A stretch of 64,000 nucleotides of DNA from Spironucleus salmonicida (GCF_000497125.1 NC_090603.1:992001-1056000), one strand, 5' to 3'. Positions 11,296 through 52,751 are shown, counted from the stretch's first letter. A program made the numbers and translations. The notes: generated by a model not told the origin, from the sequence alone.

Positions 11296-11409
11296 TTTAT
11301 CGAACAAGACTATATGTTATATTAATTTAAATAAAATATATAATTTGCTATTTATTTTTTATGTAATTTAATAGAATTGAACCAATAATAAAAAACACTA
11401 CGAATACAT

Positions 11410-11922
11410 TCATGCGAAGAAGCTCTTGAGCCAGTAGAGATCCGCCTGGAAAACAAACTTCCTCAGCCGCTAATATGCGAATTCCTGGCGCTTTATGAGA
11501 GTGAGGTTAGTGCGTAGGTGCACCTCGCTATCCACCAGGATGCTTTGAGCGAGAAACTGCGGCAGAGACGTCTGGATCTCGAACGAGGTCTCTTTGCACC
11601 CAGCCCATGTCTGGTCTGGGATTTTCACGGATCCTTCCGCAGTGACAAGCTGGATTCCGTCATAACCGTCAGAGAGCAGCAGTGAAGTGCTCTGGGAAAC
11701 GATACGCGGTGATTAAATCTAGGGAGCCGTAGTATCTAGGATCTCCAGCTGATGTGCAGCCCTGACCTGCTGGAGCAACGTGCGCGCACCTTCCGAGAAC
11801 AGAGCCAGCTGCGCAGTTTGATAAGCAATGCAGTACTCTAAGTCCCACGACTCAGATGTTCCGCTGCATAGGATATCCAGAATCTCCGCCGTGAGATCAC
11901 TGGCGATCGCGTTTGCTTCCAT
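11410..11922 (-). CDS. Hypothetical protein (170 aa), GC-rich
   Basis: Track ORF 11719-11922 extends through TAG/TAA to TGA at 11410-11412 (...FVFQADLYWLKSFFA*). It shares a 42-nt AT-rich divergent spacer with the next gene. Confidence 0.65.
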
Positions 11923-11964
11923 TCTTGAGAATATGTAGTAATATATAATAGTTTCCCTGGTTTA

Positions 11965-13935
11965 ATGGCACTATACGTCAGCTCGTCAGAACACGAGTAC
12001 AGGGCCCTGGGTGTTCCGCTAGCGCGATACAGTGCCGAGACTACTAAACTGGTCTAGCTCATGCGTTAGCCTCTGTCCAGAAGTTCGTGCGTGCAGATCG
12101 CCGATTTAGTGAGCGCACTCGGCGTAACCCTGATCTCGGCGCTCGATATTGACCCGGTATCCATGCAGATAATATCCAGTTACTGCATGTGCGCGTGCTT
12201 CCCGTGCCAAGTGGTGCACCAGGCCCTGGAGCGGTATGGGCATCGAGACTTCTCCTTGGTGATCGAGGAGCGTGCAGATATCTTCCTGTTCCACGTAGCC
12301 AACGGGGTTATAACTAAATCTACCAGCTTCGATAATACGCGTAGCGAGATTCGGACCCTTCTTAAAACCATCGCACATAGCGTAACGCGGTATGTCGTAG
12401 TGGAAGGAAGGGCTCCTGCAGTTCGGAAGTATCTGTAGGAGCATATCGAAGCTCTGAATGAAAAGTAGATTCTGGATCTCACGGCTGACTGGGCCATGGC
12501 ATCCCAGGTAGCTACGGAATGCGATAGAGTCAAGATATTGCTCAGCGGGCAGCCAGTTGACGCTAGATAGTTTATTGTGCTGGCAGGAGCTGACGTACGG
12601 ATACAGAAGGGTGCCTTCTCGGCAGTCATAAACTGCTAGCCCGGGGATATGATAATGCAGTCCGGTTGCACGTACTTCAACCACACGCGGAAGGCACCGC
12701 TGGAGTACATCGACACATATGATTCTTCATCGGTCCTAAACCTCCATACCCACCAATTCAGCATGCCTTTTGCATTCTAGGACGAGCAGCTGCACGCCTT
12801 TATCCACCGGGCGCTTGACATGTTTGTTCTGGTGCAAGGTATCCCGTTAGATCTAGCAGACAGCCTGCGGCGCTCAAGCTCGTGCATCGTGGAGGACATG
12901 ATCGTCTTTGAATCATGCCAGACTTACTCAGACGGCGTGTTCACCCTCTACGGTATCTACGACAATTCTCTTGTAGGAGTTGACTGCGTCGCCACGGTGG
13001 AGGGGAGCCTTTTCTAGTTTCTACGAGATTTTCGCATCCAGAACATGGAGGGCCTCCCCTTCCTGCACGTTCACAAAGCTGTGGCCTACGGCGGGTTCAC
13101 GCTGTTCGCCCGGCAGGCAACAGTAGAGACCTTGCAGGAATATTCCTGTCACAGCGAGCGGGCGCTGGTACTGCATGATCTGGTCCAGAAGCTAGCGTTG
13201 CTACGACAGTACGGCGTTACCTTTGCCAACCTGTCTGCTAGGAACGTCCTGGTCACACCTAGTGGCAGTATGCTATTTAACCAGTTCGCACTGGAGCCTG
13301 TCCCAGAGGACGTGACCGTACGCCAGCTAGGGAAAATTGCCCAGGTGATGCTCGAGTTCCATCCTAGGGGCTTCTCCCGCCACGAGATATTACCGCACGC
13401 AACTTACCTCCAGAAGCAGTTCCTTATGCAGGCAGACCTGCCCAGTATCCGGCTGGAGGATCTGCTCGCAAACCCCCTGTTCATGTCTGACGACTAAAAG
13501 GCCCAACTGATGGAGCAGTACCAGAGGTCCAAGGCTGGGTCCTGCCGCTACTTCGAGCGTCTCACTGTCGAGCTCGGCATCGACCCGGTAGGAATTGTGT
13601 GTGGTCTGAAGGAATTCACCCAGACTGGACGCAATGGGGCACATGGTATGGCCGGCGGTGGGGTAGACAACGCGACGCGGTTCGTACGGAACCAGCTTGC
13701 CCACTTCAGCGGCCGCCACGAATACACCTTCAGGCGGAAGCCCGTGCAGTTTTCGGCACCAGGAGAGCTGCTGCGCTTCCTGGAGACTCGAGTCGGAGGA
13801 ATATTCCAGGTCGTGTACGACTGCTACCTGCTAGAGCGCTACGGTATGGAGCTGTTCCGCAGGCACAGTGAGGGAAAGCAGTCAGATCTGGGCAAGCCTC
13901 TTCGCTCTGGTAATGAGGGCAACCGTCTGGTCTGA
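11965..13935 (+). CDS. IRE1/RNase L-family pseudokinase + KEN endoribonuclease domain protein with uncharacterised N-terminal domain
   Basis: A single 656-aa frame joins track ORFs 12091, 12820, 13045 and 13510. Kinase-like segments: GVFTLYGIYDNSLVGVD, ETLQEY, GVTFANLSARNVLV, LLANPLFMS. KEN segments: TRFVRNQLAHF and PGELLRFLETRVGGIFQVVY. Confidence 0.7.
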
Positions 13936-14100
13936 GTCGGTGCCATCGTGATCTGAAATCGGCTCCTGGGATGGGTCGAGCACCGGGACGCCGCGCACGA
14001 GCGGCTCGCGGGAGATCGCGTACTCCTACCTCGCTGGAAGCTTTGGAGTACGAATAGCAGTTAGGGCATCACTGCTAACTATCGGCTGGGAGTCGGCCAT
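13882..14100 (-). CDS. Putative small protein (72 aa)
   Basis: MADSQPIVSSDALTAIRTPKLPARQEYAISREPLVRGVPVLDPSQEPISDHDGTDSDQTVALITRAKRLAQI* fills an otherwise empty GC-rich gap and overlaps the 3' end of the KEN gene by 54 nt. Confidence 0.3.
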
Positions 14101-14168
14101 GATCGCGGAGACCCGCTGCGCGAATGCGTGTCCAGAGGCGTTCATTCGGATTTTGGAGCGGCCCCAGA

Positions 14169-14426
14169 ATGAGCAGGAAGGCCCCCGCATCAACCTACGC
14201 GAAGCCCAACTCGCACTTCGGTCGCTTCCTGCTGGACACCTATCGTACGTATGATCTGGATGCGGTGCGCGATGACTCCGACAGTGAGGTCGCACTAGCG
14301 ATGGCTATACCATTGGAGCGCCTTCACTAGCACGAGACCATAGTGCGGCGGCTTGGCCCCAGAGGAAAGGTTGTTCCGTGCTCACCCTTTGCCTGTATAC
14401 GCTGGCTGGATCGAGTGCTTGAGTGA
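14169..14426 (+). CDS. Putative small protein (85 aa)
   Basis: MSRKAPASTYAKPNSHFGRFLLDTYRTYDLDAVRDDSDSEVAL...RWLDRVLE*. It ends in the AGTGA stop context common to real genes here, 17 nt before the next ATG. Confidence 0.4.
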
Positions 14427-14443
14427 CGTCTTCTCCACTCCAA

Positions 14444-15538
14444 ATGCCAGAGGTCCTAGTGATGGAGATCGGCACCAAGGACCCGGCCACCTCAGATTTC
14501 GTATCGCGCCTGCTCTTTAACTTCCAGGTGATGGACGACAATAAGGCAGCTTAGCAGCGCAAGCTGGTTGGCCGGGTACAGCCGTTCGTGACCGAGGCCG
14601 AGTACGACTTCACGCGGCCATACTTTGAGAACCTCCTACTTATCCAGAGGAATGACGGCAAAGAGCCATAGGCGAACTCCCCTATGCTGTATCGGCGCTA
14701 CTCGGTCTAGACTGCACCGTTCGGCTGCCAGCACTACCTTCGCGCATGCGAGGTGGTCTGCCCCCAGTGTACCGCCCCGTATCCCTGCCGCTTCTGCCAC
14801 GACGAAGAGCAGGACCACGAGCTACCCTTCCGCGAGGTAGCCCGGGTGGTGTGCTGCAGCTGCCAGCTTGAGCAAGACCTGCACCAGGTCTGCGATGGAT
14901 GCGGATAGGTCTTTGGGGACTACTACTGCGAGAAATGCGCCCTCTTCGACAGCCTCGGCAACCAGGCCAAACCCATTTTCCACTCCGGCAGTCTCTGCAG
15001 AGTCGGGGTGGCCGCGTACTACCGGGACTGTACACTCTGCGGTCAGTGTATTCTCCGAGAGTGCTTTGATTCCCACGTATGCAAGCAAGAGGACACTTGC
15101 CCAGTCTGTCTGGGAACCCTCCGTGACTCCATCTACCTAAAATCTGACCTGCCATGCGGCCACCAGCTGCACCAGCACTGCCTCCAGGGGTGCTACGACG
15201 ACGGCAACTACTCCTGCCCGATCTGCAGAAAGAGCACTTTAACTGTAGAAACAAAATAAAAAATAAAAGAGAATTGGCTTAAGTTTATAAAAAAAATTAA
15301 AGTTCCATTATTTTTAAAGGGTTTATATAGTGAAATATCATGTAATGATTGCTAATAAATTTTTATTTGGCCAAAAGTTAATTATGGATACTGCTGTCCA
15401 AACTGTGACAGCCTGAATACGTTTGAAACATAGGCAACAACAAGGGATAATTTCATCAGTTATATTAAAGGAATAGAAGAACCGATAATTAATTATATGG
15501 ATTAATTTGAAGAAGCTTTTGAAAACGATGAGGGGTGA
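14444..15538 (+). CDS. RCHY1: RCHY1/Pirh2-like CHY + CTCHY + RING-H2 + zinc-ribbon E3 ubiquitin ligase
   Basis: CHY GCQHYLRACEVVCPQC...YPCRFCHDE, then FGDYYCEKC, RING CPVCL...LPCGHQLHQHC...YSCPICRKS, and C-terminal CNDC...CPNCDSLNT. 364 aa. Confidence 0.9.
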
Positions 15539-15633
15539 ACCTAAATTATTCGTTTAACTTTGATATTAATTGATTAATTACTGTAATATATATAATAATT
15601 TATATAATAAGGCAGTTTCTAATTTTAATTAAA

Positions 15634-23498: not shown

Positions 23499-26400
23499 AT
23501 GTCCTTCATTCAATTGAGTAAAGATACGCTTTTTTAATGCACATATATTTATAAATAGAAAGAGTATTTTTGTTTACTATAATTCTAAAATACTGATCTA
23601 ATAGTTTTTAAGGATAAATAGTCATCTATACTATTGATTAAAGATATTAAAATGCAATAGATTACTAAAACTGATTAAATATAATTATCATCATAACTTT
23701 CTATTCAATTCGAATCTTACACATAAAAACTATAATTTATATAATTACTACTTTTTGCTTAAAATTAGTATTAAATTACTAAATCATAAAAATCAATACA
23801 TTGTAAAGATTTGGTTACATCTGAATCACTTAAGCTAGGTTTTCTATTCAACATATTGCCATTTATTCAAATAAAAGAGGAATTATATTTTTTAAATTTA
23901 GCTAGCTAGATTCATATATTTATAAACCAAGATTAATAAATTGTAAAATTTGCAGATAACCTTTCTTATGGGATAAATATTATAAAATTTGAAACAATTG
24001 AACTTCTACTATCAGTTATTCAATAAATAACTGAGAATATGGCAAAAATAAATATTTAAGTAACAGTGGAGAATTTTAAGCTTAATCATCATATTTAAAA
24101 TACAAATATATTTGATTGTTTGATAATTAAATATTTGAAGAAGCATCCTACTGATACTTATTTCAATTAGTTTCAGTTTATTGGCTAAAAATCTTAGATT
24201 AAAATATAATGCACAGATAATTTTTTAATTTTATTTTAATTATCTTAAAGTATAGGCTTAATAAATATTAACAATATTATATAGGTGTATTATTTACAAT
24301 AAACATAATTTATTATATAGTTATAATAAGGTTAGCTTATATTTTTAGAGTCAACTAATGTATAAACTATTATTGATTATATATTATTTTACAAGGATTC
24401 ACATCATTTAAATCTTATATAATTTTATTCACTATAAGATAAATTTAATGTTAATTGTAAGCATTTAGATGTTCTAAACTTCCAGATATATTTTAAAAAA
24501 TATTTTGAAATACTAATTTATTTTAAGGCTAATAATATTGATTTCAGATTAACTAAATCTTTAGATAAATAGTTTGATATAACGTAAGATTTAACTGTTT
24601 CCAACCAAGCTTTATCAGAGTATGATTACTTTTTAGTTGATTGCATTTCATTATTATCAGCAAATTAAACATACTTTAATAATTTTATTAAACATCAAGA
24701 TATTTTAATTTAGTATTTATTAAAATTTAGTTGTAATAACAAATTCATGTCAGGATTTTATTTATTAAGATTATTGTACCATATTTTATATGGACGTAAT
24801 TGCAATTAAAAATCTATTGCTAATTATACGTTATTGTATGTACAAAACGAGTAGAGTCAATTATTGTAATTTTTTGATAGTATCCCATCATAAATTTAAA
24901 AATTTTATATATAATTTATTGAGTAAGCAAATTTTGATAACATTTTAATTTAAAGTAGTCTTTTCATCATTAATTCCGAATATATGGTAAGATACAAACA
25001 TAATTAACAATTAGATGAATTTTTAGGAACCTTATTTTAGATATTTAAAGATAAATATGTTATTTAAATTGAAAACTTAAATAAGCTATTAATCTTTCAA
25101 ATTTTGTCTATTAATTATTCATAGAAACATATTTTATCCTAACATTATAGGTTATATGATATTAGTTAATTTATTAAATTAATTACATATTATCTAGACT
25201 TAGACAATAATTCTGCAGGTTTTTAAATAATTACGCTTTACTTATCAACATTAATGGTGCATCTAGTATTCATATAAGATATTATAAATTATATTTTTCC
25301 TTTTCAAATTGCATTTAATATTTAAAATTTTGTTCAATTTTAACACGATATATCTTATTTTCCTAAGTTTTGCAAATTATATTTTGAAAATATTAATCAC
25401 GGCTGTATTTTTTGGAACGATAAAATACGTTAAAAAACAAAAGATTACTTACTACTTATTATTAATAATCAAACAACTCGTTCAAAGAGGCTTAAAACGC
25501 TAGTATAAATGCTCAAAAATAATATTATTGATAATGAATTTAATATTCCTTTCTAAGACCATAATATGTAAATTGGTGGTATGTTATTGTCATCTTCTAT
25601 GATTGATAACTAATTAATTTAGTAGTATGTTGACCATAATTTAATGCAAATTGATAATAGTTTCTTACAATAATTTAATAGTTATTATTTATCGGTGTAT
25701 TAGAATAATCCACTTTAAGAATTTGTACTAGATTAGCTTTTTGTAAAGTACTTAAATGAACCAGATATTATTAACAGATTGAGCATACTGTTTGCTTTTC
25801 TTATTATCTAGTTATAAAATTAATACAAATTTAGTTTATTTTAATCATTTACAAATACATTAATAAGTAATTGTTAACAAAACTTGTTTAATGATGTATT
25901 TATGTAATTGATAATTCTTAATTGTAGCAAATAATTAGGATAAGACTAGTTTTTTAACAATATTATAGACTCATCTTTATATGATATCATTATTAATTAT
26001 TTATTAGAATTTTTACTTAGTAATTAGCAAATTATTAATTAAAACATACCAATTATAGTTACAACAAGACATTTAATTCTTATATTCAGTAAAATACTTT
26101 ACTATTTTTCATTTTATGATATTTTTTTGTTTGATTAAACCAATAAAAGAATTGAAATGGGTTATATTATCTGTTATCTATTAATTATTTCATAATATGA
26201 TGATTCTTCAGAGTTAATCAATATTTATGTAGAAATATTCCATAGTTTTTATAAAGAAGATATTTTACAATGCCCTTAATTATTTATAGCTATTTTATTT
26301 TTAACTAACTCCAATAAATCTATAAATCTGTTAAAAGTAATGTAATCAAAAGTCCCATAAATTTTATCATTTTTACCTAAAGCAATTTATAATTTGTATA

Positions 26401-29348
26401 TTAATCTATAAACTTCAACCATATAGCTTATTTTAGAATAAGATTATTTCATTAGTACATTTTGCGCTTGGTCTTAGTTCTTTAAATAATAATTGAAAGA
26501 TTAAATTGATATTAATATTGCAGAAATTAAATCCCAATTAGAGTTAAACTCTTAGTATAGTGTATTATCATTATAGTAATTGTAGCAAATATGCTATGAT
26601 ATATCAATATAATTTTAGTTTCCTTTTGAGAATTCGTGTATTTATAGCTACGACTAATAGATATACTTCTAACAATATAATTAAAATTCTGACAGTAGTA
26701 TTTATGACTAATTATATTATTTTAACTTTCTATCAACAGAGTATGATTTGATAGCAATTATAAATAATTTAGCAGAGAGCCAGGCAACTTATTTAAGCGA
26801 TATAATTATTTTACTAAATTTACTGCATTCTAAATTAGAATTATATAATGAATTTATTTAATCTGACATTTTATTAATCTCAGCTATTTGTATTTTAAAA
26901 AATATTCAACTGGTTCAAAATACAATTGATAATTATTTTGATAATTAAATTCCATTTATCGACGGTATATTTTTATAATTTATCTCATTTTTAGATAGTA
27001 ATATTAAAATATTCAACATTAATACTTTTAAATAACAGTTAAAGGTTGATAATAACTAATAATATATTAGCCTTAAGTAACATATTTAGCTTGTTGTTTA
27101 AAATCTTAAATTCGTATTTATCAACTTAGATATATCTAACACGAGTACTAACGATTAATTTCAATTATCCACCCTTATTATTAATGAACTAACAAATTAC
27201 GAAATTCTTCGTGATGAAGTATAAGTTGACTTTTTATTGAATTTCTATTTCAAAAACTATTCAAAACTCGCAGTAGAAGATCATATTTAACTTTAGAAAT
27301 ATCTTACTAAAATTTTTAACTCTCAGAAACTTAAAAATATTTCTCCCATGATCCTTATTCTTTTACTAATTTTCTATTTTGATGCCCAAGAAATAGCAAT
27401 GAAGTTCATAAAATTAATAATAGGTGAATTTAGAATCATAGAGTAGATTACATTATAGTTGTCAATATTCGGACAATTTTTAATTAATTAAGATATCAGT
27501 AGTCTATAAAGGCTCTAGATGGTCGAAATTTTTACAGAAAAATTTACAGTCACTACAGATGATAAATAGCAGATATTAAAGTAGTTAAAAGATATTAGGG
27601 AAAATACTGATTTGAACAGTGTTAAAATTGGATTTGTAGGATGCCCTTATGACGTTGAATCATACTAAGTAACTAATATGATCAACATTGTGAAAACAGA
27701 ATTATAGATATCTAAATCATTCGATGGTAATTATAGCAAACAACTCCACGGGAAATCTAATTTGCGTGAAATAACAAGATCATTAATTGATTATATAATC
27801 CAAACTGAGTTTTATAGCAATGATAGCAGCAAAATAAGTAGTTGTTAAAAAATAGTAAGAAGCTTTATTCTCATTTATATTCATGCTTGTATATAAGATG
27901 AGGTTAACACTGATATTCATACGAATATTGTATTTAAGAACCATATTTTGACGTTAGCATAAGATTTTCATATCATATAAAATGTATTAGAGTATTAATA
28001 TAATTTTATTGTTTACTCTTTTATAGTTAAATTTGATTGGATGAGTATATCTAAATAAGATATTTTTAGCAGAGTCGTATAGAATACAGTGTAAATTATC
28101 TATGATGACTTATATAGTACCCTTTAATTATAGAAAATACTGATTCAATTGATTTGTCAGAATACCGCATATGATAACGTGGAAACAGGGTTAATTATTG
28201 TATTATTTTCGTTATTATAGTTTGATAGTAAGTATGAAAAATCTATTATAATTATATAAAATATACTTATACAGAGATATAATTATAGTACTTATTTATA
28301 AAAAATATTCCCGCTACCATTATTTGATTTACTAAAAATTTAGCCTACATTACTTATAACTACTCAGATTAATAATTCGTATATAATTTGGAATAATAAT
28401 TGTTATTAAGACTATAATTAAAATATTTGTCATTATTACTTTAATGGTCATTAAATTGGTAATTTTTACGATTTAACTGGTATTCATTTGTAATTGTTTT
28501 AAGACAAAGAACTAATTAATAATATTATTTTACAAAATTATATTTAAGATAGTAATAGTACTTCAATACAAATCAATGACTAAAAAAGTTTTTATAAACA
28601 ATTCTTATCTAACTTCTAATTTTTTTTAGAAACATAAAATATTATATAAATATTTAAATATCTAGAATTTTTATAAATTTCTCTTACTAATATTACTAAT
28701 ATCTCATATTTATTAATATAGGATGACTTTAATTTCTTTATTTACTCTCTTTTAACTGATACTTTCTTAATAGCAATAGTTATAAATAATGATACATATA
28801 AAGATAAATTTTAAGATCTTCTAAACGCTATAACGTATAATATTTCATAGTATAATCATATTATTAATAATGACTATGGGATCATGCTTCTAAAATAGTT
28901 ATTATTATTTATATATGACCCCAGTCTGACAATGCTGTCTCTTATCTAATGTTTTTATGATATTATATGTAATTTGGTCTTATTCACATCAACATTATTT
29001 AAAAATTATGATGTTCGTTTGTAAATAACAAGATTTGTAGTCTAAGATCAGGTTTATGGAATGGATATATTTTCATTTTATATTTGTAAAATTGATGGTA
29101 ACTAAATGTTAAAATAAGTATGTTATTATTGTATAAAATTATTATGCTCCCAGTCTAAAGAGGTAGAAGAAATAGTTTTATAATATTGTACAAATAAATA
29201 ATAGTTATTAGAAATATCAACATTGCCATTTATTTTTTAACAAGTACCGATTTCTATTGAGTAATCAACTACTTAATTTTAGAATGAATTCTTTATTGAT
29301 ATTGAAAAAAATAGCTGGCAAGATATCTTTAATAACATTATTGATTGA
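23499..29348 (+). CDS. Very large helical-repeat protein, divergent RME-8/DNAJC13-like (IWN repeats)
   Basis: ATG at 23499 and TGA at 29346 share a frame (~1,949 aa; sampled segments open). IWN-type repeats: HGCIFWNDKIRQ...NEFNIPFQDHNMQIGG, FLPKAIY...FCAWSQFFKQQL, and IFPLPLFDLL...NSYIIWNNN. Confidence 0.6.
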
Positions 29349-30872: not shown

Positions 30873-33206
30873 TCAGTCGATATCTAAAAAACATGCAGGA
30901 TGACAATAGCAAAGTGCAATTTAATTAGCATCATAACTACCTTTAACTACCACTGATTTACCAATAATGTCTTCGTTCATGATTTGGCTCTATAGTTCTT
31001 AGTATATATCCGAGTGAATATAGCTGACGGGTAACTATACGATATTTTAATCTGACTATTAACAAGCACCAGTTGCTAGCTATTAACTGCTTTCTTTGTA
31101 GCTAGAATTAAAAGAAATCTTTTTAAATATCAGATAGAATCCAACTAGTGCTAAAAAGACACTAGAGTATTTCAAAATAACATTTTTTGTAGTAAGACAA
31201 TAGGAAACTGTACAAAACAATAAATAAATACTGCTGAAATATATATCGTCCATAACCATTTTTATTATATCAATACCAGGGCTCATTTCGTTTGTAGGGA
31301 CCATTTTGCTCTTATATAATATTTGATATCGTTCACAGAACTAATTCATAAATTCTATTATAATTAAGACATTAAAAGAAATTGGCGCAATAACCATATA
31401 CATCATCGCTATTGTAAACATATGCAATTTTCCGGCGAGTGCAATGTAGTAGTCAAAATCATTTTTCTGGTACCACTTGGCTTTCTTTATACTAGGTAAT
31501 ACGAGACCTATAATGTACATTAAGAAATCACCAACACCTACAATGTTTCCTGGTCCCTCATTCAAGTATTTTGTAATCAAGAACGTTAAAAATGAAAAAA
31601 TTTGAAGTGGAATATTCTGACCTATATTGTTGATTATATCACTTATATTTGCGGTTGTTAGAAAAGATAGATCAAACTATCCAGTCTCCGGATTGAGTGC
31701 AGCTGGAAATGCAACTTATAAAATTCCGTTCAAAAGAATTAGAAAAATAAACAAAATTTTGTATTTTAAAGCAGTTAAATGTGTGTTAGAGACTGTATTT
31801 GCTGGTTTTACTGCAAAATCAATAATAATAGGCAAAAGTGATGCAAAAATTGTAGGAATTAGTCCGAAAACGTAAGTAATTAAGAAATTTGCTAATGCGT
31901 AGCAGTTTGGTTCATTGAAGCAAATGTCTGTTTAAATAAAATTGATAATTAAAAGACCATTATTATTTACAAATTGGATTGTCAGGGATTGAAGACCGAA
32001 AAAGATTAAAAACGATATCAAAATGGTAATAAAAGTTAAAATTGAGCTTAATTTGATTATAGAGATGCTTCTAGAGAGTTTTCTCCACTAAATATCTGCA
32101 TAATAAGGGGCTGGGATTATTTCAGGTTTTTTTCTATCAGCTGTAAGTAAAAGGCTAATTTTTTATGCCGCTGACACTTGTGAATCACAGATAATGAATG
32201 CGTTAAGACCCTTTCTATCATAGATTTGTTAGTAATAATTAGGTGGTGATTGTTATACATTGAAGTAAGTTTTAAGGTTTAATGTTTCGCCGATAGAAAA
32301 ATTTTAATTTGCTTTTTTAATAGATGGTAAAAATGGTACTAATTCGTTGTAAGTAAAATGCTTCTTAATTTAAAACTTTTAAATTTATTGTGATATACTC
32401 TATATTTTAAACAAATTATATTGTTAACGTAAGGTTAAATAATAATAATGCAATTTGTTGATAAATGGAATACTATATTTAATTGATGGCTTCTAAAGGC
32501 AGATATAATAAGCATGAAATTTTTATTATTTGAGAGTTAATTTCTTAATTTTTTTGATTAATTCTTAGGTATTTTCGTATAGTTTTTACTGTTTATTCTC
32601 GAGACAAGGGATAATTTGAGTTATATCCTCAAAATTTTCAAAGATAGTATTAAAAAGTTCTGATGGTATATTTCTAGCTAATACAGCATAATTACTAGGA
32701 ATAGCACGTTACATACATTTTTACCGAAAAGTTATATACACAATCATAAAGTTCTCGAAGAACCTAACCACCTCTTAACAAACTAGAAAAGCCACAAAAG
32801 GTACGGCAAGGTACGACCAAGAATGGTCACCAAGATTCGAAATAATTAAAGAAGAATATATTGTTAATTTTGACTATGTTTAGTTATTCCCAAAAAAATA
32901 CAGAAGCTGCAGCAATAAGCTATAACAAAATAGTCTCGTGATCAATCCGAAATATGCCTTTGAAAAGTAAATATAAATTGTAGCCAGATTTCCTTTCTTC
33001 GCAAATTAAGATAAAGGTTATTTTAAGACATCCATTGGCCATAAAAATATTTATTTCATGTTTTTAATTTAAGATGAAAATGGCCTAAAAACTTAAGGTG
33101 CAGATTATATTAGAAAAAATGATAATATTATATAGAAAATACCTGATCCCATATTAATTAGAAAAGAGAATGTAAGATTTTATTCTAGAAGTTAGTCTGC
33201 CGACAT
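30873..33206 (-). CDS. OSCA/TMEM63 (CSC1/RSN1) mechanosensitive cation channel family protein
   Basis: 777-aa frame. TM0 SFLINMGSGIFYIILSFF..QVFRP, YAVLARNIP, AFIICDSQVSAA, PAPYYADIQWRKL and FTIAMMYMVIAPI. Joins track ORFs 31083 and 31341. Confidence 0.82.
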
Positions 33207-33244
33207 TTTGTTTAAGTCAACAATATATAGATTATTATATACTA

Positions 33245-34975
33245 TCACATACATGTTTTTGTGTATAATACTCTAAGTAATTCGCCTTAGTCTCTAGTAC
33301 CCATACTGAGTCCTCTTATTTTATATAATCCTGGTTTTTTAAATACATAACCCTTTAATAGATACTATTTAGACTTTGTAGTACACCCAATACTCTCATC
33401 ACCACTTATTTAACTTACTTACAAAGTTAATTCTGTAACGCAATTACACTTTAAGGACTGTTATTCTTTTACAAGCATAAGATTTCGGCTTTATACTTGT
33501 AATATCTATTCATTATTGTTGGTGTAGTACTAGCTTTTAGTGATAGTTCCCACAAAACATGAGTATAAACCAGCATATTATATAGAGCCTCTTTAATTAT
33601 CGATAACACATATAGATTCGTCTATCTTCCCTAATACTAAACTATTGTCTTCAAATACCTCTACTATTAAAATTTCAATATGAGGAAACTGCTACTGAAG
33701 TTTTAATTCTTTTAAACTGCATTGGAAAGTAGGATTTTTAAATTATCCTAATTTATACTAGTCACCACATCTAACATTATTATCTTTAATAATAATATAA
33801 TTGTTCTAATCTAATAACTAGAAATATCCTGCCTCAGTCTACTAATCAAACCCTGTTTTCTAACACCCTGATAATAAAATTTTCTAGCCTTTCTTAAACT
33901 CAATTTATGAGTTATACGGCATAAAATACTGACCGTCAGACAAATAATTCTGATTAATAATAAAAAATACTCCAGTTACCGACTGTACCGGCTAATTTTC
34001 TTCGTATATTCTCCTTATTAAGGATGTCTACAGAAACTCCTAACTCTTGCTAACATGTAGTAGTATAAGCTCAGGGGTAAACGATAAAATTAAATCATAA
34101 ACTTATTCATTGTCAAAACGGGATAAATTTCGCACTAAAAACAATTGCACTAGTTAGATAAAGAAGGAAAAATTATCTAAAAACCCATGTTCTCGTGCAA
34201 TACGATAAAGTGTTTTGTATGAAATCACCAAACTATCAATTTAACTAACAACAGGAACAATAATTACCTAATAAAACACAGATGCTTCGTCACTACAATC
34301 AGCAAATAGTTAATTTCCGTCAAATTCGGAGTTTAGTACGTTTACAAAAACGATTGATTGCAAATTTTCAAAACTAAGCATTTAAAATAAATGAAGATAA
34401 TAATACTGAAGCTGTTAGTTATTACTATAATATTGATATAATTGCTTCTAAAGCTTATTAAAAAGAGTATCTTAGAGTAAATACTTGCCAAACTATGTAA
34501 TGTTTTTCGGTTTATAGTTTTCAGTGTGGAAACTGTACAAAGAAGACGGGAAAGGAATTTTAAAGTTTAGCTATTAAAGTAATATTAAAGTTTAGGGAAT
34601 TTAAAATGGTATTTAGTTATTTTAAAGCTGGTTTATAAGTGATTTGATGTATTATTACTAGTTTTAGTTTGTTAGGTAATATGTTTTATTGAAAATTGTT
34701 GTTATAATATGACTTGTGGATGTAGAAATATACTATCTTGGCTTTTCGACTAATTATATAGAATTTTAAAGAACTTACGGTTGCGGTTATGCTGATAATT
34801 GTGAAAGTTTTAACTTTGAGATATTCAAGTCATTTATTTAAGATTTTACTGTACTAGTATCTTAAGTTACAATATCTGCAGTCATAAATAAGCCCATGAA
34901 ATCGTCATTCTTCTAGTTATCTTAATCTAATTAGACATCCAAATCCGCTGTTTAGAACAAATCGTCCAAACTCAT
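33245..34975 (-). CDS. Hypothetical protein (~576 aa)
   Basis: ATG at 34975 (MSLDDLFQTADLDVQ...) and TGA at 33245 are in frame. Divergent from kinesin across a 55-nt AT-rich spacer. Confidence 0.65.
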
Positions 34976-35030
34976 TTTAAGTTTAACGTAATTATTATAC
35001 TATATTTATTAATAATACACAATTTGCTAA

Positions 35031-36911
35031 ATGTCCCATATAACTGTTGGAGTGCGAGTCCGCCCAATGATCAAAAGAGAGCTCGAAGGCGGCCAAAATA
35101 ACTGCCTCTAAGTTACAACGACGCAAGTAGTAGCTAGAGAGTCCCTGAACTCGTAATACGACGATCAGCTCCTTTTCCCCTCTTACAACTTCAATTTTGA
35201 CCAGGTTTATGGCCCAGAATCGACCCAGCAGCAGGTATGCGAAATCACAACGCCAACACTATCAGCATTCGTGCAGGGCGTCAACGGCTGCATTCTCACC
35301 TACGGCCAGACGGCCTCTGGGAAGTCTTTTACGATCCAGAACAACACTTCTGGAATTCTTCCACACGCGCTGGACTACATCTTCCAGAACGCCAAAGCGA
35401 CCGCAGAGGTGAAGATTTCGTACCTGCAAATTTACAACGAGCAGCTCCTGGACCTCCTGGACGAGTCGAGCAAAAAGCTCTCTATCCGCGAGTCCAAAGG
35501 CGAGATTTACGTCGAAAACCTCTCGATTTTCAGCGCAAAATCGACCACAGAGGCGCTCGAACTCATCGCCCTGGGGAACGAAATCCGCAAAACGTCAGAA
35601 ACTGCAATGAACATCCAGTCCAGCAGAAGCCACGCCGTTTTTACCGTGTACTTGAACGACGCTGAGCACTTTTCGAAGCTCTTAATCCTCGATTTGGCGG
35701 GCTCAGAGCGCGCGCATTCGAGCCAGAAAGACGTCCTGCGCGAGACGAAGCACATAAACAGCTCGCTGGCTGTCCTGTCGAACGTGCTGAACGCGCTTTT
35801 GCTGAAGGATAAAAATCCGAAACAGTTCGTCCCCTACCGGGACTCAAAGCTCACGCGTTTGCTCTCTGACTCGCTGGGAAAAAATTGCAGATCTGTCATC
35901 CTCACGACCATTTCACCTGGAAATCAGAGCTTTTCAGAGACGATTAATAGTCTGCGCTTCGCAGATCGTGCAAAAGCGATTAAGCAAAATGGGCAGGTTA
36001 ATCAGATTGAGAGCGACGAAAAGAAGATTTAACGGTACAAAAATGAGATTCAAAATTTGATGAAATTGATATAAGAGACTAAGGCTGGGGTAAGTATGCA
36101 GGAAGATGAAAGTGTGCATTAAAATGTAAAAATAAGTAAATAATATGTTCTAATGGATGAAAATGATAATATTATTAACTTATAAAATGAATAGCAAAAT
36201 GAGTAATTATAAGACCTCAGAAATATCTCCTTGAAATAGAAAGATATAATGATAACTTTGACGTAGAAACTGTAAGAAAGTGAGGATGAGTATTAAGAAA
36301 CAATCTTATAAATCGACTAGATATAAGACAGGGTTGAAAATTATGTTTAGTAAATTGCTAAGAAAAAGTAGTTTTTAGAATCTAAAGATATTATGAATTG
36401 TGACAAAATTAATGAAAAGTTTATTAAAGAGCATGGTATGTAAAAGTTTATGAATTAATAGGATGAGATTTTTAATTATAATAACTAATTATTAAATAAT
36501 TATTTTACAACAGAAATAAGCGATTATGAGGAAAGTATGACAGTAGAATAAAAGTATGAAGAATTATAACATATAAAAACAGAATTTAGCAGCAAAATAC
36601 TTTCTGCATAGAAGACACTTAATAATATTTAATAGCATTCTATCTAACAATAGTATAAACTTGAAAAATTATCTGATCAGATAATTTCAGATTTAAAGTT
36701 AAGTAAAACAGATAAATTTAGCGCACAGAAGTTAGTAGAATGCCAACAAGAGCGTAGGCTTATGCTTAAGATTTTTAATGAAAAAGTTTTAAACAAATTA
36801 ACAGATATTACACCAAATGAAGCAGTTTGTTTGTAAAATTATTTATTAAAGGTCTGTGATGCAATAGAAACTGGACAGCTATTTTAGAGTCTTAACTCAC
36901 TATTTAAATGA
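35031..36911 (+). CDS. Kinesin (N-terminal motor domain + coiled-coil tail)
   Basis: VGVRVRP, YGQTASGKS (P-loop), NIQSSRSHAVF (switch I), DLAGSER (switch II) and VPYRDSKLTRLL. 626 aa. Confidence 0.96.
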
Positions 36912-37532: not shown

Positions 37533-38135
37533 TCAAATCAAAATGCTCCCTAGTAGTAAAAAGAGACAAAAAACAAGAGCATACTAAATTAAGCTAAATT
37601 TAGTAATGAATATGTCATCATTGTCAAGTGTTTTTTTAGAAACACTATTTGTATTATTCCATTAATCAAATATTTTACCCTATAGTATTATTAAAAATAC
37701 TATTGTTATTGCACATGAAATTCTTAGAGTAGTTTTTCTTTGAGTTTTTTGCTCATCAATTAATGCAATAAAAAAACTTACAATGTAGCTAAGGATAAAG
37801 AATATCCCTGCAGCAGTTCTATGCGGACACGAAGATGCGGCGAGGTCTATTTTTACGATACACTGGTAAATAAAGGCTGTACACATTATGGCCGTAGTTA
37901 TTATAGTAAGACACTATAAATACGAGCTAGATGACGTGGTTTGGAGGGCAAACTGGGATATCCCGAGAAATAGCAAGCAGGCAGAGATTGTTCCCCCGAT
38001 TGAATATATTGGGTAACCCATGTTAGCACCAGCCTCCGAAATTGACGGAAGATACGCAGCATTATCGAATACGATTGCCACGACCAGGGTGGACACGATA
38101 GTTATCGCGAAGGACGCCAGCGCGAACTTAATCAT
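37533..38135 (-). CDS. Frag1/DRAM/Sfk1 (TMEM150-like) membrane protein, full-length copy
   Basis: TM1 followed by YLPSISEAG...YPIYSIG, about six hydrophobic segments and HRTAAGIFF. Joins track ORFs 37914 and 37680. 200 aa. Confidence 0.75.
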
Positions 38136-40813
38136 TTTAGGGCAAAAAAGGATAAATACATATTATGTTATATCAAAAATGTAAATTAAAAAAATGTTAG
38201 TTTAGTTGATAGCCGCTTGAACTTACGCGGATATTTAATATTATTAATATTTAGATTATCTATTATCTGGTGTAATACACACTTATAATTATAGTCGGTT
38301 TATATATAACATAATTTTTACACGTGTTAGATTATTAATTAAAATCATAGATATTGAATTGGTATCATAGTAATAATAATGGAAGCGAAAAATCATAACA
38401 GAAAGTATGAAACTGTATTATTGCATATATTTATAATTACATAGTTTATTGATAAAATTTTAGAGATACAGTTTTAGATATAGCTAAATTAAGCAACTAT
38501 ATTTTGTATTAGAAACTCTTACCATAAAAAAATCTAACGTTTTATAATTAATTAGTTAATTTTATTTTTGTTAAATATAAATTGATTTTTATGTCTTTTA
38601 TTGTGAATAGAATAGTAGCATATCTTCTGTATGTTCCAAGAATTATTAATTATTTTCCAAGCATATGCGGAAATAAACTGCAATAGAATCCCTACTACCA
38701 AGTTTTTGTTTTGATACGTATGCGTTAACCTATTTTCTTTTGTATTTTAGATGGAATGATTACTTGTATTAAAATTAGAAATATGTTTATTATTACTGTA
38801 TGATCACTAATTAAACTTTTGAAAGTGAGTAGTTTAGGCACTTTTATTTCGTTATAAACCATTATAAGTAAATTTAAGATTTATAATCCAGTGCCAATTA
38901 CCAGATATTTTTATAGTTTTAATAAAAATGTTCTTGTTTCAATATCTAAATTAAAACTGGTAGTAACATTAAATATCAAAACATATTTAAACTAAATGAG
39001 GAATATTTAAGTTAATGGGAAAAATTAAAAAATTGTGTTTAATATTACAAATTTTCTTTAAATATTTTAACGAGTAAATAAAGGAATTTAAGGTAAATAG
39101 AAGTTTTATAATTACTGTAATTACGATCCTTCACTAATTGCACGAAAAAACAACCATTATAGTGATTATTTCTATGTATAGTGTATATTAAACTTAAATT
39201 AATATGTTTAGACTAAAATACTATTTATAAATATTTTCGTAATATGAAGAGTATAATCAAATTATAGTCGAATGGATTGATGGAAGATGTATTTTTATTT
39301 ATCATCATTAACTTTTATATTAAATTACAGCATTTACCATAAAAATTATATTATTGTATAATTGCAATTAACTTTTTGCGATATAATATATAGATATAAA
39401 ATTTTAAAAGTAGCATAACATAATGTATTTTGATAAGGTGGTATAAAGGAATTCATACCAAACTGAAGACTAGATTGAGTTAACTAGTTTCTTATATGTA
39501 TGTATAATTTCATCATTTAACACAACTGAATTTTCAATACTAATAAACTAGTCATGTTTATTTTAAACTATTATTATATATTATACTTTTGTTTAAAATT
39601 AAATATAAAATGAAATTTTATCACTGTTTAAAATTGTATCTTTAGAAAATAATTATAATTATCTCTTCATTTCATAGTTTATTTTTCTATTCTGTAATAT
39701 TGTATTAGTAAGAGATCTTAATTAATTTTAAATTTATGTCCGCCTAAAATAGAGATAGTTTTTGAACATTAATTTAAATGTAATTATCTGCTCATATTTC
39801 GATGATACTGAAATTAACAAATATTCTAGAGAAAATATAATCACACTATATATCTAAATACTTGATTTAATTGACTATAGTATGTAAATGCTAGTTTATA
39901 AAATTTATTGAGTATACTTACATGCAATATTTATTAGGATCTATACTCATTATTTAAAAAATTATATATACTATAGAATTTTATAATAAATTAAATGCAC
40001 CATCAATTAATACATAAAGTTTTGCTAAAGATGATATTATTTTAGATTAAATGCTTATTTCCATTAAATTTAAAGAAATCTACAAAGTTTATTTTATCAA
40101 TTTATAGTAAAAGTATTATAGACATGTATTCTATTTCAGTTCGTATGTTTCAGATTTATTATAATGTAATATTTTTAATTAGAAATCAACAAAAAAATAA
40201 TATGTAGCCGATTATTATAAAGTTGTAGTCTAAACCAACGATTTACCAATTATGCTTTTAATATATTAATAGATGATTTACTGTTGAGTATAAAGGTTCT
40301 ATATTATTTATCCCTATTTTATTGTTATATTACTTGATAATATTTTACATTTTAAAGATGTATTATAGTAGAATACTATTATTTTTTACTTTTGAGTGCT
40401 AACCAGATTTAAATTACTATTTGTAAGATATCAGAGTTTCTATGAATATTGTATCTGATTATTATCTCAAAATTTATGAACCACTTGAAAAACGAAGCAA
40501 GAACCATTAAAGATAAATTTAAAACTAGATGCATGATAATACAGAATAAAATATATACAATACTGGTTCTTCATTGTATAGTCTAATATAATGTTGTATA
40601 TTTTTTATTATGTATATACAATTGTTTTTAGGTTCAGTTATTGATTAATTTAATAAACTATTAAAATAAATATATTGATTATAAATTCTTTGACGTAAGT
40701 ATAGCAGAATATGATTTGATATTTGTTAAGTGATAAACCACAATATAGTAGCAAGATATACAGTATATAATAATGTGTGTATACAATAAATCAAATCTAT
40801 ACTTTTCATAAAA

Positions 40814-43800
40814 ATGGAGCTATCTGAATCACTCTTTAACCACTATAGTTAAAAGCAGGCTCACCATATCCTTGAGGCTAAGTTGGGCTTAGTTAAGGGA
40901 GACCTTTCTTAGAATAAAGATCTTATTCACGAGTACATCAATCTCAAACTTTTGACACTTGGTTAGAAGCCAATAATTTCAGGCGAATCTGTTATTATGA
41001 CTCCTGGAGGATCAAAATAGCGAATTGAAGTTTCTGTTGCATAAATTGCATAGGATCTTATCCAACAGCTAAAAGCCTCCCCTGAGAGAATGGCCCCTGT
41101 TGATGAACGAATCACCAGCTTCCTCACTAAGGAATTCCCAAAGGCTTCTCTTAAGCTACCTGCAGGTGGAGAGACGTTCTCAATTGATCGTGCTGGAGTT
41201 GCTTTTGAACTTTCGACACCTCATGATTCCTAATATTATTCTGCTGATGGTAATCTTAATATCAGAATCCCCTAAGGCCTTCTTTCCAACCCAAAGTCGG
41301 ACAAGCGTTCCACTGTTGGAACGTTCCACGTAGGAGAATCATCCACATCTATCCCCTTTGACAAACTTGCTGTTCCCAAACACACTGTAGAGTTTATGCT
41401 TAAAAGTGCTCTTAACCCTCCTAAAAAGTCTCTTGAACTACCATTCACCGCTTCTCTACCAGAGTCAGATCGTACTCATTGCTGGACGTCTGTTTATTGT
41501 TGTCCACCAGTCATTCCAGGTATTGGATCTTAGTCTAAGGCATATACCCAGAAACACATGGACGTTAGATATTTTGCTCCTGCCGCCTTTGTTGCTAATT
41601 TAGGTTTTGTGGAATAGATCTTTTCTAACAGAGGAAATCCTACTGTAAATGACTTATTAACTACCTAGCCAGAATTGCACTCAGGTGTTTCTGCTATTAT
41701 TATTCTTGCTCCCCATCTTGTTAGTACAAAGAAAAAAGAATGTGGCTTACCTCATTTCGATTAGGCCACTGAACGCTAGAAACGCGATGGAATGTGCTGG
41801 AAGGATGAAAATGAGCTTTACAATGGTGGAAAGCCGTTCAAGCTTACATATAGAAGCCAGACTGATGGTGTAGTTGTATCTATCCTTGCTGATACCTATT
41901 TTGGATATAGTAAGAAAGAAATAAAGACTATGATCAGTTTTGCTTGTAATATTAGAGGTTTCAGCCAAGAAGAGCATGCCGGCGGCTGTTATACGTGCCC
42001 TGCTTATAGCTGGGGTAGAAGCTTTAGAAGCTCTGACTCAAGAGTAGGCTTGTATAATAATGCACAACATGTCGAAAGTGTGAGCGATTTCACTGCCAAG
42101 AAAACAAAAGAGTAATCTGAGCGCACACTGACACACACTTTTGCTGAGATGAAGGAGCTTCTTGGTGGAAAGGCTACTTATGATCAATAGAAAGGATATT
42201 TGATTGATAAGAGTTTTAAAAATGTTATTTATCTCCCAGAATATGTTAATATCGAACTTTCTGATAGAAATGTTACATATAAGCATCCTGATACCAATGA
42301 GACATTAACTATGAAGATCAGTTCAGAGACTGTATATGTTTTACCAAATGGTTATTAAATGCAGCTTTAACGTCACCCAGTCACAAAGTAGTGGATGATT
42401 GTTGGTACACTACCCACCACCAAATTTTTATACAAACCTTCATCTGTTTCAGGATCAGGAAAATCAGAGTTAAGTAAATCTATAATGGATGCAGTCACAT
42501 CGGGTCCATTCTTTTGCAAGAATTTCAAAGATATGATGGATGGTGCAGAAAAAGTCCTTACTGGTAACTTCAACTAACGTTTCCGCCCAGAATTCTAAGA
42601 CTAGTATAAATCTAAGAGTGGAATGTCTAGGCATATATTAGCAGCGGAACGTACTATAGGTTCAGTTATATAGTTACTTACCATATAGGAAAAGTACACC
42701 GAAGATTACAATAAATGGCTTTCATCATTTGACTAAGATATAATAGCATTTATTTTCGTACTCAAGTCAATGTATAGACCTTCATGGGGAGATTATGAAG
42801 ATTCTAAATCTTGGAGAGCACACTTCTCTATTGATGTTGTTAATGGTTCTGAAGGATATGCTCTTAAATGTTAGGGGGTTGAAATTTAATCTAACTATCT
42901 TCGTGTAGGTATGGAGAATGGTAACTGGCGTAAATTTAGACTCAGATAAGATTTCTTCCCAGGTGTACGTTTCCAAAATAATGATGATATTGCGGTATCT
43001 CTTACTATTCCAGGAGAATAGCTAAACAATCTCACACATTCTGGCTAGTTTTGTACTGATCGTTCATACAAGCTTACCTCTAACTGCGAGTATAGGTATT
43101 TCTAAAGACCAGACGATGCAGTGCACCCAGGTGTTGATAAAAAGTGTGAAAATGATCTTTCCGAAACCTAAGGAAGAACATTCATCAGTAATTTTGAGCC
43201 AATTCCTAGAGAATAGGTTTAAGAGATTGCACAGGATGTTATGACTCTTGAAAAGTATTCTACCAGCATGCAAAACTTTATCAAGGACTTCTCGTCATCT
43301 GAGAAGTTTGGAGAATTTGATAATTGCGTTATTTCTAGCGAGTTTAGAATTACTGACCCTGCTAAAGGTACGAGAACAGCTAATGTTAGATATTTATAAA
43401 CCAGAGACGAACTTTTATACAGAGACGTTCAACTTGATAAGTATATGATAGAAATTCGTAATAGACTCGCCAGAAATATTCCATTTTCTGCACCTGTGCC
43501 TCTACCTGTTGATGTTTACGTTCCTGGAAGAAGACTTAATACCGTTGATCCTAAAAACTCAAAGATACGCCCACTCTCAGTATATAACCCAGTTCATTAT
43601 CAACCAATCCCACTTCTCATTTTAGATGTTATGACGTCAATGTCTGGTAAGTCTCCATCAACTACTGGCTCTGGCTCACTTGAGGGAGCCCTTACTAAAG
43701 GTCCTTTCAATAATCTTCTTCCTGCACTTGACATAAATTATTTTGCTCTTTCTCTTATGTTATCTACTGATCCAGTTCTCAGTACTGCTGCTGGAAATAT

Positions 43801-44461
43801 CGGTAGAAAATTAAAGATTGATCATGATATTACATTAATCATCCCTGATATTGTTTCTAGAATGACTAGTAGTGAATTAAATATTGATAACCTGATAGCT
43901 GGAGGTTTCCTTGAGAAGGTTAAAGATTTTGAACACAAGGGTCAAAAGGTACCTGCTTCAATTCTCGGTTATAGAATAACCCAATCTTTCGTAAGAACTT
44001 ATTTCTCCCGTATATTTGATCATGTTGGCGGCATTTTCACTGAAGAACACTTAAGACCTGAACTTCAATCTATTGATGAGTTTGCTGACGGTGTCATGTT
44101 TATCTGGGAAAATATTTGTGGATAAGTCTCCGACTATTATAAAGATGGTTCATTCGAACAACTTATTCCTCCTCTCCAAACTCTTCTCTAAATTGTTTAG
44201 AACGGCGGAACATATAACAATTTGACTGTAGATTCTCCAGAGTTCCTTGCTGAATTCAAGAGAGCTAATGTTATTAATTCACCATGGTATAAATAAAGAC
44301 TTATTTAAGCCCAGAGAAATGAAATTTAACTTCTTTAAGACAAGATTTCTAAAGTTGGCGGTGCTGATCTCAAAGAGAGACTCGAATATGTAAGAAGCGA
44401 GAAATATCTTTAAGATATTAATGGAAGCCTTGGTGTCCACGTTTTTAACGAGGAAGAGTGA
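40814..44461 (+). CDS. Pyrophosphate-dependent phosphoenolpyruvate carboxykinase (PPi-PEPCK), copy 1
   Basis: 1,215 aa. NPKSDKRSTVGTFHV, GMCWKDENELYNGG, ADTYFGYSKKEIKT, EEHAGG, KPSSVSGSGKSE, NCEYRYFQRPDDA and GKSPSTTGSGSLEGALTKGPFN are motifs of the Entamoeba/Propionibacterium-type PPi-PEPCK family. Confidence 0.88.
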
Positions 44462-44687
44462 TGACTTCTAATTTTTATATTTTAGTTACGTATTTTAAGA
44501 ATTTTTGAACATCTATTTTCACACCCCTTATATTAATTTATATTATAAAATATAGGACGAAACAAAGATGCATTAGACTGGACCGATGATAATACACTAT
44601 TTTGGGAATCGAAGTGACACATGATTATAAATATTTTAAATAGAGGCAACACTATTTAATATTATATTTAATCGACTATTGAGAAGA

Positions 44688-45137
44688 ATGACATGTGAAT
44701 TCTTTGCCACAATTGGTTGCTGCAAATATGATAATGCATGTTCACGACATCACATAGCATAAGAATCTTCAAATTTAGTGGTGATTCCTAATTTATGCCC
44801 ACTGACAAAGAGTATAGAATTGAACGAATAGTTACTTTTACAGTCTGTCAAAGAGATAGTAAGATTTGCTAGTGAAAACTCCCATATTGTAGATTTTACT
44901 GTCGCTGTGAATAATAACCATTTATATGGTACTGTATATTTACTATTTGAATCAATTATTGCAGCAAATGCATTTGTACTTAGTCTTCCCAAAGCATTTT
45001 CAGGAAAAGATATTGTGGCTAGATTTCTTCCACACAAAGTACTAAAACCTATATTCTGCAATGTAAGAAACTGTGATGGATACTTTTGTCAGAAGGTGCA
45101 TGAGAAGTTTTTTAGTCGAAAAGATATATTGGATTGA
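44688..45137 (+). CDS. U2AF1: U2AF small subunit (U2AF35)-like splicing factor, copy 1
   Basis: 149 aa. ZnF1 CEFFATIGCCKYDNACSRHH (C-x8-C-x5-C-x3-H), UHM with NNNHLYGTVYLLF and FSGKDIVARFLP, and a shortened ZnF2 CNVRNCDGYFCQKVH. No RS tail. Confidence 0.78.
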
Positions 45138-45215
45138 AGGTATAATGATAGTATTACAAAATAGTTATTAGGAATTATTTAGTGTATACATTATAGATTT
45201 ATAGCTAATTTAATC

Positions 45216-45671
45216 TCATAAATTTAAATTACATAGGCTGATTAGTTCAATATAATTCAATAGTGACGAATTTCTAATTTAATCGAATGAATATATAGTA
45301 TATGTAATGATAAATTCTTATTATAAAGTAGGCAATAACATTATAGTATCGGCTCTATGCGGACACGAAGATGCGGCGAGGTCTATTTTTACGATACACT
45401 GGTAAATAAAGGCTGTACACATTATGGCCGTAGTTATTATAGTAAGACACTATAAATACGAGCTAGATGACGTGGTTTGGAGGGCAAACTGGGATATCCC
45501 GAGAAATAGCAAGCAGGCAGAGATTGTTCCCCCGATTGAATATATTGGGTAACCCATGTTAGCACCAGCCTCCGAAATTGACGGAAGATACGCAGCATTA
45601 TCGAATACGATTGCCACGACCAGGGTGGACACGATAGTTATCGCGAAGGACGCCAGCGCGAACTTAATCAT
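45216..45671 (-). pseudogene. 3'-truncated chimeric DRAM/TMEM150-like copy 2
   Basis: Identical to the full gene for the first ~106 codons, then reads into unrelated sequence (ADTIMLLPTLQQEF...) to TGA at 45216. Confidence 0.7.
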
Positions 45672-51300: not shown

Positions 51301-51997
51301 TACTGATCCAGTTCTCAGTACTGCTGCTGGAAATATCGGTAGAAAATTAAAGATTGATCATGATATTACATTAATCATCCCTGATATTGTTTCTAGAATG
51401 ACTAGTAGTGAATTAAATATTGATAACCTGATAGCTGGAGGTTTCCTTGAGAAGGTTAAAGATTTTGAACACAAGGGTCAAAAGGTACCTGCTTCAATTC
51501 TCGGTTATAGAATAACCCAATCTTTCGTAAGAACTTATTTCTCCCGTATATTTGATCATGTTGGCGGCATTTTCACTGAAGAACACTTAAGACCTGAACT
51601 TCAATCTATTGATGAGTTTGCTGACGGTGTCATGTTTATCTGGGAAAATATTTGTGGATAAGTCTCCGACTATTATAAAGATGGTTCATTCGAACAACTT
51701 ATTCCTCCTCTCCAAACTCTTCTCTAAATTGTTTAGAACGGCGGAACATATAACAATTTGACTGTAGATTCTCCAGAGTTCCTTGCTGAATTCAAGAGAG
51801 CTAATGTTATTAATTCACCATGGTATAAATAAAGACTTATTTAAGCCCAGAGAAATGAAATTTAACTTCTTTAAGACAAGATTTCTAAAGTTGGCGGTGC
51901 TGATCTCAAAGAGAGACTCGAATATGTAAGAAGCGAGAAATATCTTTAAGATATTAATGGAAGCCTTGGTGTCCACGTTTTTAACGAGGAAGAGTGA
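48350..51997 (+). CDS. PPi-dependent PEPCK, copy 2
   Basis: +7536 copy of 40814-44461; the track peptides are identical. Confidence 0.88.
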
Positions 51998-52223
51998 TGA
52001 CTTCTAATTTTTATATTTTAGTTACGTATTTTAAGAATTTTTGAACATCTATTTTCACACCCCTTATATTAATTTATATTATAAAATATAGGACGAAACA
52101 AAGATGCATTAGACTGGACCGATGATAATACACTATTTTGGGAATCGAAGTGACACATGATTATAAATATTTTAAATAGAGGCAACACTATTTAATATTA
52201 TATTTAATCGACTATTGAGAAGA

Positions 52224-52673: not shown

Positions 52674-52751
52674 AGGTATAATGATAGTATTACAAAATAG
52701 TTATTAGGAATTATTTAGTGTATACATTATAGATTTATAGCTAATTTAATC

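Follow-up and report, generated by a model that had tools for sequence, protein, structure and literature searches.

A gene on the plus strand of the Spironucleus salmonicida DNA analyzed here (the window, a stretch of 64 kb taken as a whole) codes for a 656-aa hypothetical protein, P0001, whose N-terminal domain is, as judged from its sequence, not a demonstrable Hsp70/actin-like ATPase. A preliminary description of the window had proposed that the interval 11965-12720, which corresponds to residues 1-252 of P0001, codes for a shrunken Hsp70-like module fused to a nuclease. The explanation that we modestly favor is that the P0001 N terminus is an orphan domain, unrelated to the Hsp70/actin fold, that would regulate a nuclease resembling RNase L, with residues 296-625 being likely, although by no means certainly, a pseudokinase joined to a KEN module. 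The gene and its parts are as follows.

11965..13935, plus strand: coding sequence of the 656-aa hypothetical protein P0001, complete and without introns (translation with table 6).
11965..12849, plus strand: N-terminal region, residues 1-295, an orphan domain (no homologue by phmmer; 0 Pfam families).
12223..12312, plus strand: first segment, ALERYGHRDFSLVIEERADIFLFHVANGVI (ALERYGH...HVANGVI), residues 87-116, proposed to correspond to connect-1 and phosphate-2 (from the translation).
12388..12513, plus strand: second segment, RYVVVEGRAPAVRKYLQEH...LTADWAMASQVA (starting RYVVVEGRAP), residues 142-183, proposed to correspond to the adenosine motif and connect-2 (from the translation).
12850..13479, plus strand: kinase-like region with degenerate catalytic motifs, residues ~296-505 (from homology with Hexamita and motifs recognized by eye).
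13480..13839, plus strand: KEN/HEPN-like putative RNase module, residues ~506-625 (from the RN-x3-H motif and weak profile matches).
13687-13704, plus strand: R575-N576-x3-H580 motif (from the alignment of three clusters).

The two strings on which the Hsp70 proposal was built do exist in P0001, at residues 87-116 and 142-183, and the reading of the second depends on the diplomonad genetic code, since both Q158 and Q168 are encoded by TAG. Their echoes of Hsp70 motifs are at chance level by shuffled Smith-Waterman comparison, by hhalign, and by Pfam. With a comparison set of seven Escherichia coli ASKHA proteins (MreB, EutJ, DnaK, HscA, HscC, YegD, and FtsA), the Smith-Waterman scores of the two segments are, in each of the 14 comparisons, matched by at least 42 and at most 440 of the 500 shuffles. 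The best DnaK alignment of the second segment is at DnaK 345-372, which is the site named in the preliminary description, with a score of 24 that lies under the shuffle mean of 25.8; the best DnaK alignment of the first segment is at 325-339, away from the phosphate-2 site, which in DnaK is DLGGGTFD at 194. Alignment of residues 1-295 to the E. coli ASKHA alignments by hhalign gives probabilities of 0.3% or less (expect [E] values of 0.2 to 0.9), and none of the top alignments is in the register that had been proposed. A Pfam search of the whole of P0001 returns 0 families at E ≤ 10, phmmer/profile searches of PDB sequences (P0001, A2, A3, and P0004) return no ASKHA match at E ≤ 10, and an NCBIfam search returns noise only. 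A Pfam search of P0003, the 733-aa homologue from Hexamita inflata, gives 0 families at E ≤ 1.

The nucleotide-holding loops of the superfamily are absent from P0001, since its residues 1-295 contain 11 glycines of which no two are adjacent, and there are no DxG, DxGGGT, or GG loops in the N-terminal region. At the proposed phosphate-2 position, where DnaK has DLGGGTFD, P0001 reads IEERADIF, and the proposed adenosine position reads VEGRAP. The landmark motifs of DnaK are at positions 6 (GIDLGTT), 174, 194 (DLGGGTFD), 341 (GGQTRMP), and 366, and on the proposed register the same landmarks in P0001 fall at about 87, 103, 148, and 173. For this register to hold, P0001 would have to lack ~100 residues from phosphate 2 to the adenosine motif and ~90 residues of the first lobe, and the module, at ~185 residues, would not reach half the length of the DnaK nucleotide-binding domain (NBD) used here (385 residues).

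Residues 1-295 have no homologues by phmmer over 1.84 billion representatives, and the S. salmonicida and Hexamita N termini are not detectably similar to each other, with a Smith-Waterman score of 39 (z of 0.88) that is equaled by 46 of 300 shuffles, and an hhalign probability of 0.07%. The best colinear alignments (by MAFFT and hhalign) pair P0001 3-279 with P0003 114-382, in which case the Spironucleus protein would miss the first 110 residues, amounting to a whole lobe, and the first segment would fall in a different structural element. The P0001 N-terminal region has the hydrophobic pattern of a globular domain (grand average of hydropathy [GRAVY] of 0.12). The three Hexamita copies differ pairwise at 19, 4, and 18 positions, and between two of them (P0003 and P0006) 16 of the 19 differences are in residues 1-405 and are mostly conservative (I/V, E/D, K/R, and T/A). 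From these comparisons, the Hexamita N-terminal region looks to be evolving several-fold faster than the C-terminal half, yet as a constrained, folded domain. The AlphaFold2 (AF2) models are too poor to judge the fold, both for single-sequence, full-length P0001 (mean predicted local distance difference test [pLDDT] of 35 and predicted template modeling score [pTM] of 0.25) and for the P0003+P0004 alignment, A3 (pLDDT of 32). Foldseek gives no ASKHA rows with either the P0001 model (pLDDT of 35), for which all rows have E ≥ 0.04, or the Hexamita model (pLDDT of 32), for which the rows are helical-repeat noise.

Relatives of P0001 are recognizable through its C-terminal half. Word-based homologue searches recover its own cluster alone, and phmmer over the same representatives finds two further clusters, P0003 (E of 5e-19) and the 318-aa homologue fragment P0004 (E of 1.7e-13), both of which match residues 295-625 only; pairwise BLASTP of P0001 with the Hexamita homologue gives an E value of 2e-26. 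Residues ~296-505 are probably a pseudokinase, in which, by eye, FANLSARN stands in place of HRDxxxxN and NQF in place of DFG; there is no Pfam Pkinase match in P0001. With the pLDDT-35 model, the top Foldseek rows are the ULK4 pseudokinase, RNase L, and WNK1, with IRE1 in rows 30 to 44, and all of these are insignificant, the ULK4 pseudokinase and RNase L rows having E values of 0.04 to 0.1 and template modeling (TM) scores of ~0.07. The putative nuclease module carries R-N-x3-H, which we take to be the HEPN/KEN-type catalytic motif; its residues R575, N576, and H580 do not vary among P0001, P0003, and P0004. The motif is part of a block, FxRNxxAHF, that is followed by GEL and FQVVYD, and these are invariant in all three clusters. 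The Pfam family Ribonuc_2-5A (PF06479) is matched by two of the three family members at E ≤ 10, and P0004 also matches two Cas13a HEPN models in the same region, with E values of 0.0014 and 0.002.

The preliminary description had placed the N-terminal module where IRE1 has its BiP-regulated luminal domain, and this placement is contradicted by the lack of a signal peptide and of a membrane span before the kinase-like part. No signal-peptide-like start is seen in P0001, and there is no hydrophobic span between the N-terminal and kinase-like parts, in residues 100-300, so that no part of the chain is across the membrane from the rest. The sole hydrophobic window above 1.6 is at residues 42-60 and contains an Asp, and P0003 has no counterpart to it (maximum of 1.25).

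P0001 is a multi-copy hypothetical protein of S. salmonicida. It is identical (100%, rounded) to UniRef V6LLR2 of this species, and its 90% cluster holds three full-length copies (P0001, P0002, and P0008) that are 1 to 3 residues apart, together with three fragments; no paralogue was found elsewhere within the window. Under translation table 11 the frame has nine stops within 11965-13935 on the plus strand, all in the same frame, and these codons (eight TAG and one TAA) are read as Gln in the P0001 translation, with the TGA at 13933-13935 as the terminator. Use of the diplomonad code is justified because the resulting protein is identical or near-identical to annotated S. salmonicida proteins. 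The start at 11965 is fixed by an in-frame TGA at 11926-11928 and by a 42-bp AT-rich spacer.

The gene is part of a sharply bounded GC island (~11400-15200), with 51 to 62% GC compared to 23 to 39% in the flanks. The GC content at third codon positions (GC3) is 0.67 in the P0001 gene, compared to 0.24 to 0.30 in neighboring genes, and the Gln codons are shifted to CAG and TAG. Contigs of public sequencing runs end at 11409-11456 (three of four runs) and at 15533-15589 (all four runs), and these contig ends at the island edges, taken with the near-identical protein copies, point to a duplicated unit of ~4.1 kb. According to the chromosome-scale genome report (PMC9509377), 19.2% of the assembly consists of duplicated regions, whose mean GC content is 44.7%, compared to 30.7% elsewhere, which makes the island a type of feature already described for this genome. 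The unit and the two genes that flank the P0001 gene within it are as follows.

11409..15589, no strand assigned: duplicated unit of ~4.1 kb, GC-rich (51-62%), with three genes (from the GC profile, contig ends, and protein copies).
11410-11922, minus strand: divergent GC-rich open reading frame (ORF) of 170 aa with no Pfam family, separated from the P0001 gene by the 42-bp AT-rich spacer.
14444-15538, plus strand: CHY zinc finger/RING/zinc-ribbon gene, coding for a Pirh2/RCHY1-like E3 ligase by domain content, directly downstream of the P0001 gene.

The divergent 170-aa ORF was considered as a split-off first lobe and was set aside, as comparison with the Hexamita protein reveals no similarity (best E of 2.8). 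We note that the right compositional edge of the island is inside the CHY/RING gene, with a GC3 of 0.77 for codons up to 15199 and of 0.29 after.

Several results weigh against the explanation that we lean toward, in which the N terminus is an orphan domain, unrelated to the actin/Hsp70 fold, on an RNase L-like nuclease. For the C-terminal half, the match of P0004 to PF06479 has an E value of 0.0031 and 18.1 bits, which is under the curated cutoff of 23.3; P0001 itself has no match to KEN or to any Pfam family at E ≤ 10; neither a kinase nor IRE1 or RNase L turned up at E ≤ 10 in the profile searches of PDB sequences (P0001, A2, A3, and P0004); and all of the Foldseek rows have E ≥ 0.04 and come from the pLDDT-35 model. 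For the N-terminal half, 8 of the 10 ESM Atlas neighbor rows of P0003 residues 1-400 are actin-like ATPase clusters (PilM, MreB, Hsp70-domain, and MamK), and on the strength of these structural models the N terminus of the P0001 family may be an ASKHA-type fold. In these eight rows 176 to 216 residues are aligned within positions 2-339, with TM scores of 0.39 to 0.50 by row and scores of 266 to 420, every row for the P0003 N terminus being below the tool's own bar and derived from a P0003 model with a pTM of 0.23 and a pLDDT of 0.37. A control with P0003 residues 401-733 returned ten unrelated folds (TM scores of 0.12 to 0.28 and scores of 195 to 217), none of the ten being ASKHA; rows that agree as those of the N terminus do are therefore not the default output for this model. 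The same control shows that the P0003 model also misses the C-terminal fold suggested by sequence.

It is worth weighing whether the N terminus could be a shrunken, nucleotide-blind actin/Hsp70-type module acting as a protein- or ligand-binding sensor on the pseudokinase-nuclease. The Atlas rows and their control favor such a fold, a single beta-beta-beta-alpha-beta-alpha-beta-alpha unit (of which the ASKHA fold has two, as RNase H-like lobes) can be traced by eye through P0001 residues 95-185, helices 81-91, 126-138, 151-162, and 166-182 of the poor AF2 model fit that layout, and the second segment aligns at the DnaK adenosine/connect-2 site. We nonetheless consider it unlikely. The Atlas rows are all sub-bar and come from a poor model that misses the C-terminal fold, and the hint is not safely transferable to P0001 because the Spironucleus and Hexamita N termini are not detectably similar. 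Moreover, the best alignment of the two would remove the first lobe from P0001 and shift the first segment to another element, there is no profile hidden Markov model (HMM) or hhalign signal and there are no glycine loops, and several mutually incompatible registers can be drawn by eye on P0001 and P0003, to which we give no weight. Quite improbable, in our assessment, is a reading of the N terminus as an extension, poorly structured and drifting fast, of a gene copy carried by a repeat, with no sensor function of its own; the gene would perhaps be decaying. The lack of homologues for residues 1-295, the AF2 confidence of 23 to 38 for most N-terminal ten-residue blocks of P0001, and the location of the gene inside a duplicated, GC-rich unit, together with its several copies, some near-identical and some fragmentary, would all be consistent with drift. 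However, the 656 codons are open without a TGA at 55% GC, when ~9 would be expected by chance (an estimate from base composition), the three full-length copies have diverged by so few residues, and both the globular hydrophobic pattern of the region and the mostly conservative changes in the equivalent region of Hexamita speak against drift.

With an orphan regulatory domain at its N terminus, P0001 would be an RNase L/IRE1-like protein that is soluble and probably located in the cytosol, of a kind known to date from hexamitid diplomonads alone. Its three parts would be the orphan N-terminal domain (~290 residues), a kinase-like domain that is catalytically dead, and a ribonuclease module of the KEN/HEPN type that bears the RN-x3-H site. 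The mechanistic model is drawn from RNase L and IRE1. By analogy with RNase L, the N-terminal domain would be the regulatory or sensor part, binding a ligand or partner; ligand binding would promote dimerization of the pseudokinase-nuclease halves, and dimerization would presumably form the RNA-cleaving site around R575, N576, and H580. We infer the pseudokinase and KEN identity of P0001 and, with it, the nuclease activity, dimerization, and sensor role.

If this account of the C-terminal half is true, then diplomonads possess a divergent nuclease of the pseudokinase-KEN type, in a lineage for which a kinome survey reported no member of the IRE class (PMC3218828). The N-terminal domain would then decide what the nuclease responds to, and its fold would be the key to function. 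An Hsp70 relationship would offer a concrete hypothesis, that of a chaperone-like sensor joined to a nuclease, for which the present evidence is insufficient; the Hsp70 label should not be attached from motif echoes at chance level, and there is one sub-threshold hint that is worth following. A more doubtful extension of that hint is that hexamitids, despite belonging to a group in which IRE-class kinases reportedly were not found, may possess an unrecognized nuclease, active in stress or immunity, whose single soluble chain would join an actin/Hsp70-type domain blind to nucleotide, a pseudokinase, and an RNase of the KEN/HEPN type. In such a fused nuclease the actin-like part of the S. salmonicida protein would be shrunken or single-lobed, and the architecture, if true, would be a new type of sensor-nuclease. 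In the literature searched (supplements aside), we found nothing that connects either Spironucleus or Hexamita with IRE1, KEN, or HEPN.

Elsewhere in the window there is a perfect tandem duplication, in which 38000-45500 is repeated at 45536-53036 (7,501 nucleotides [nt] with 100% identity, at an offset of 7,536 nt), and each copy contains a 1215-aa ORF (40814-44461 and 48350-51997) that matches no Pfam family. At 23499-29348 (plus strand) there is a very AT-rich ORF of 1949 aa, which has 168 TAA/TAG Gln codons and likewise no Pfam family. Ordinary neighbors include a gene for a kinesin motor protein (E of 1e-88) at 34896-36911 on the plus strand and one for an RSN1_7TM calcium-dependent channel family protein at 30873-33254 on the minus strand.

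Among known systems, the Hsp70 NBD and other ASKHA proteins (MreB, PilM, FtsA, and MamK) resemble the P0001 family in being sub-threshold structural neighbors of the Hexamita homologue and in the beta/alpha pattern that can be drawn by eye; they differ in that the P0001 N terminus has no HMM, hhalign, or local-alignment signal and none of the glycine loops. P0001 appears to share with IRE1 a kinase-like domain directly before a KEN-type nuclease motif, and IRE1 chains are among the Foldseek rows, whereas P0001 lacks a signal peptide, a luminal domain, and a transmembrane helix between sensor and kinase, and has degenerate kinase motifs. The kinome survey mentioned above (PMC3218828) reports no IRE-class kinases from excavates, Giardia among them. 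One study (PMC10400998) dates the origin of the OAS-RNase L pathway to before the common ancestor of jawed vertebrates. Giardia proteins that have been matched to RNase L (PMC6312909) were considered as relatives of P0001 and were not retained, as they are of an ankyrin-plus-kinase type and do not seem to be relatives. P0001 differs from RNase L, whose N-terminal ankyrin repeats bind 2-5A, in having no ankyrin family (Pfam at E ≤ 10), in the orphan nature of its N-terminal domain, and in its diplomonad host. It nevertheless resembles RNase L in its apparent order of sensor, pseudokinase, and C-terminal KEN/HEPN nuclease within one soluble chain, and in the R-N-x3-H motif that is followed by a conserved hydrophobic block, with RNase L among the top Foldseek rows and a weak PF06479 match on the homologue.
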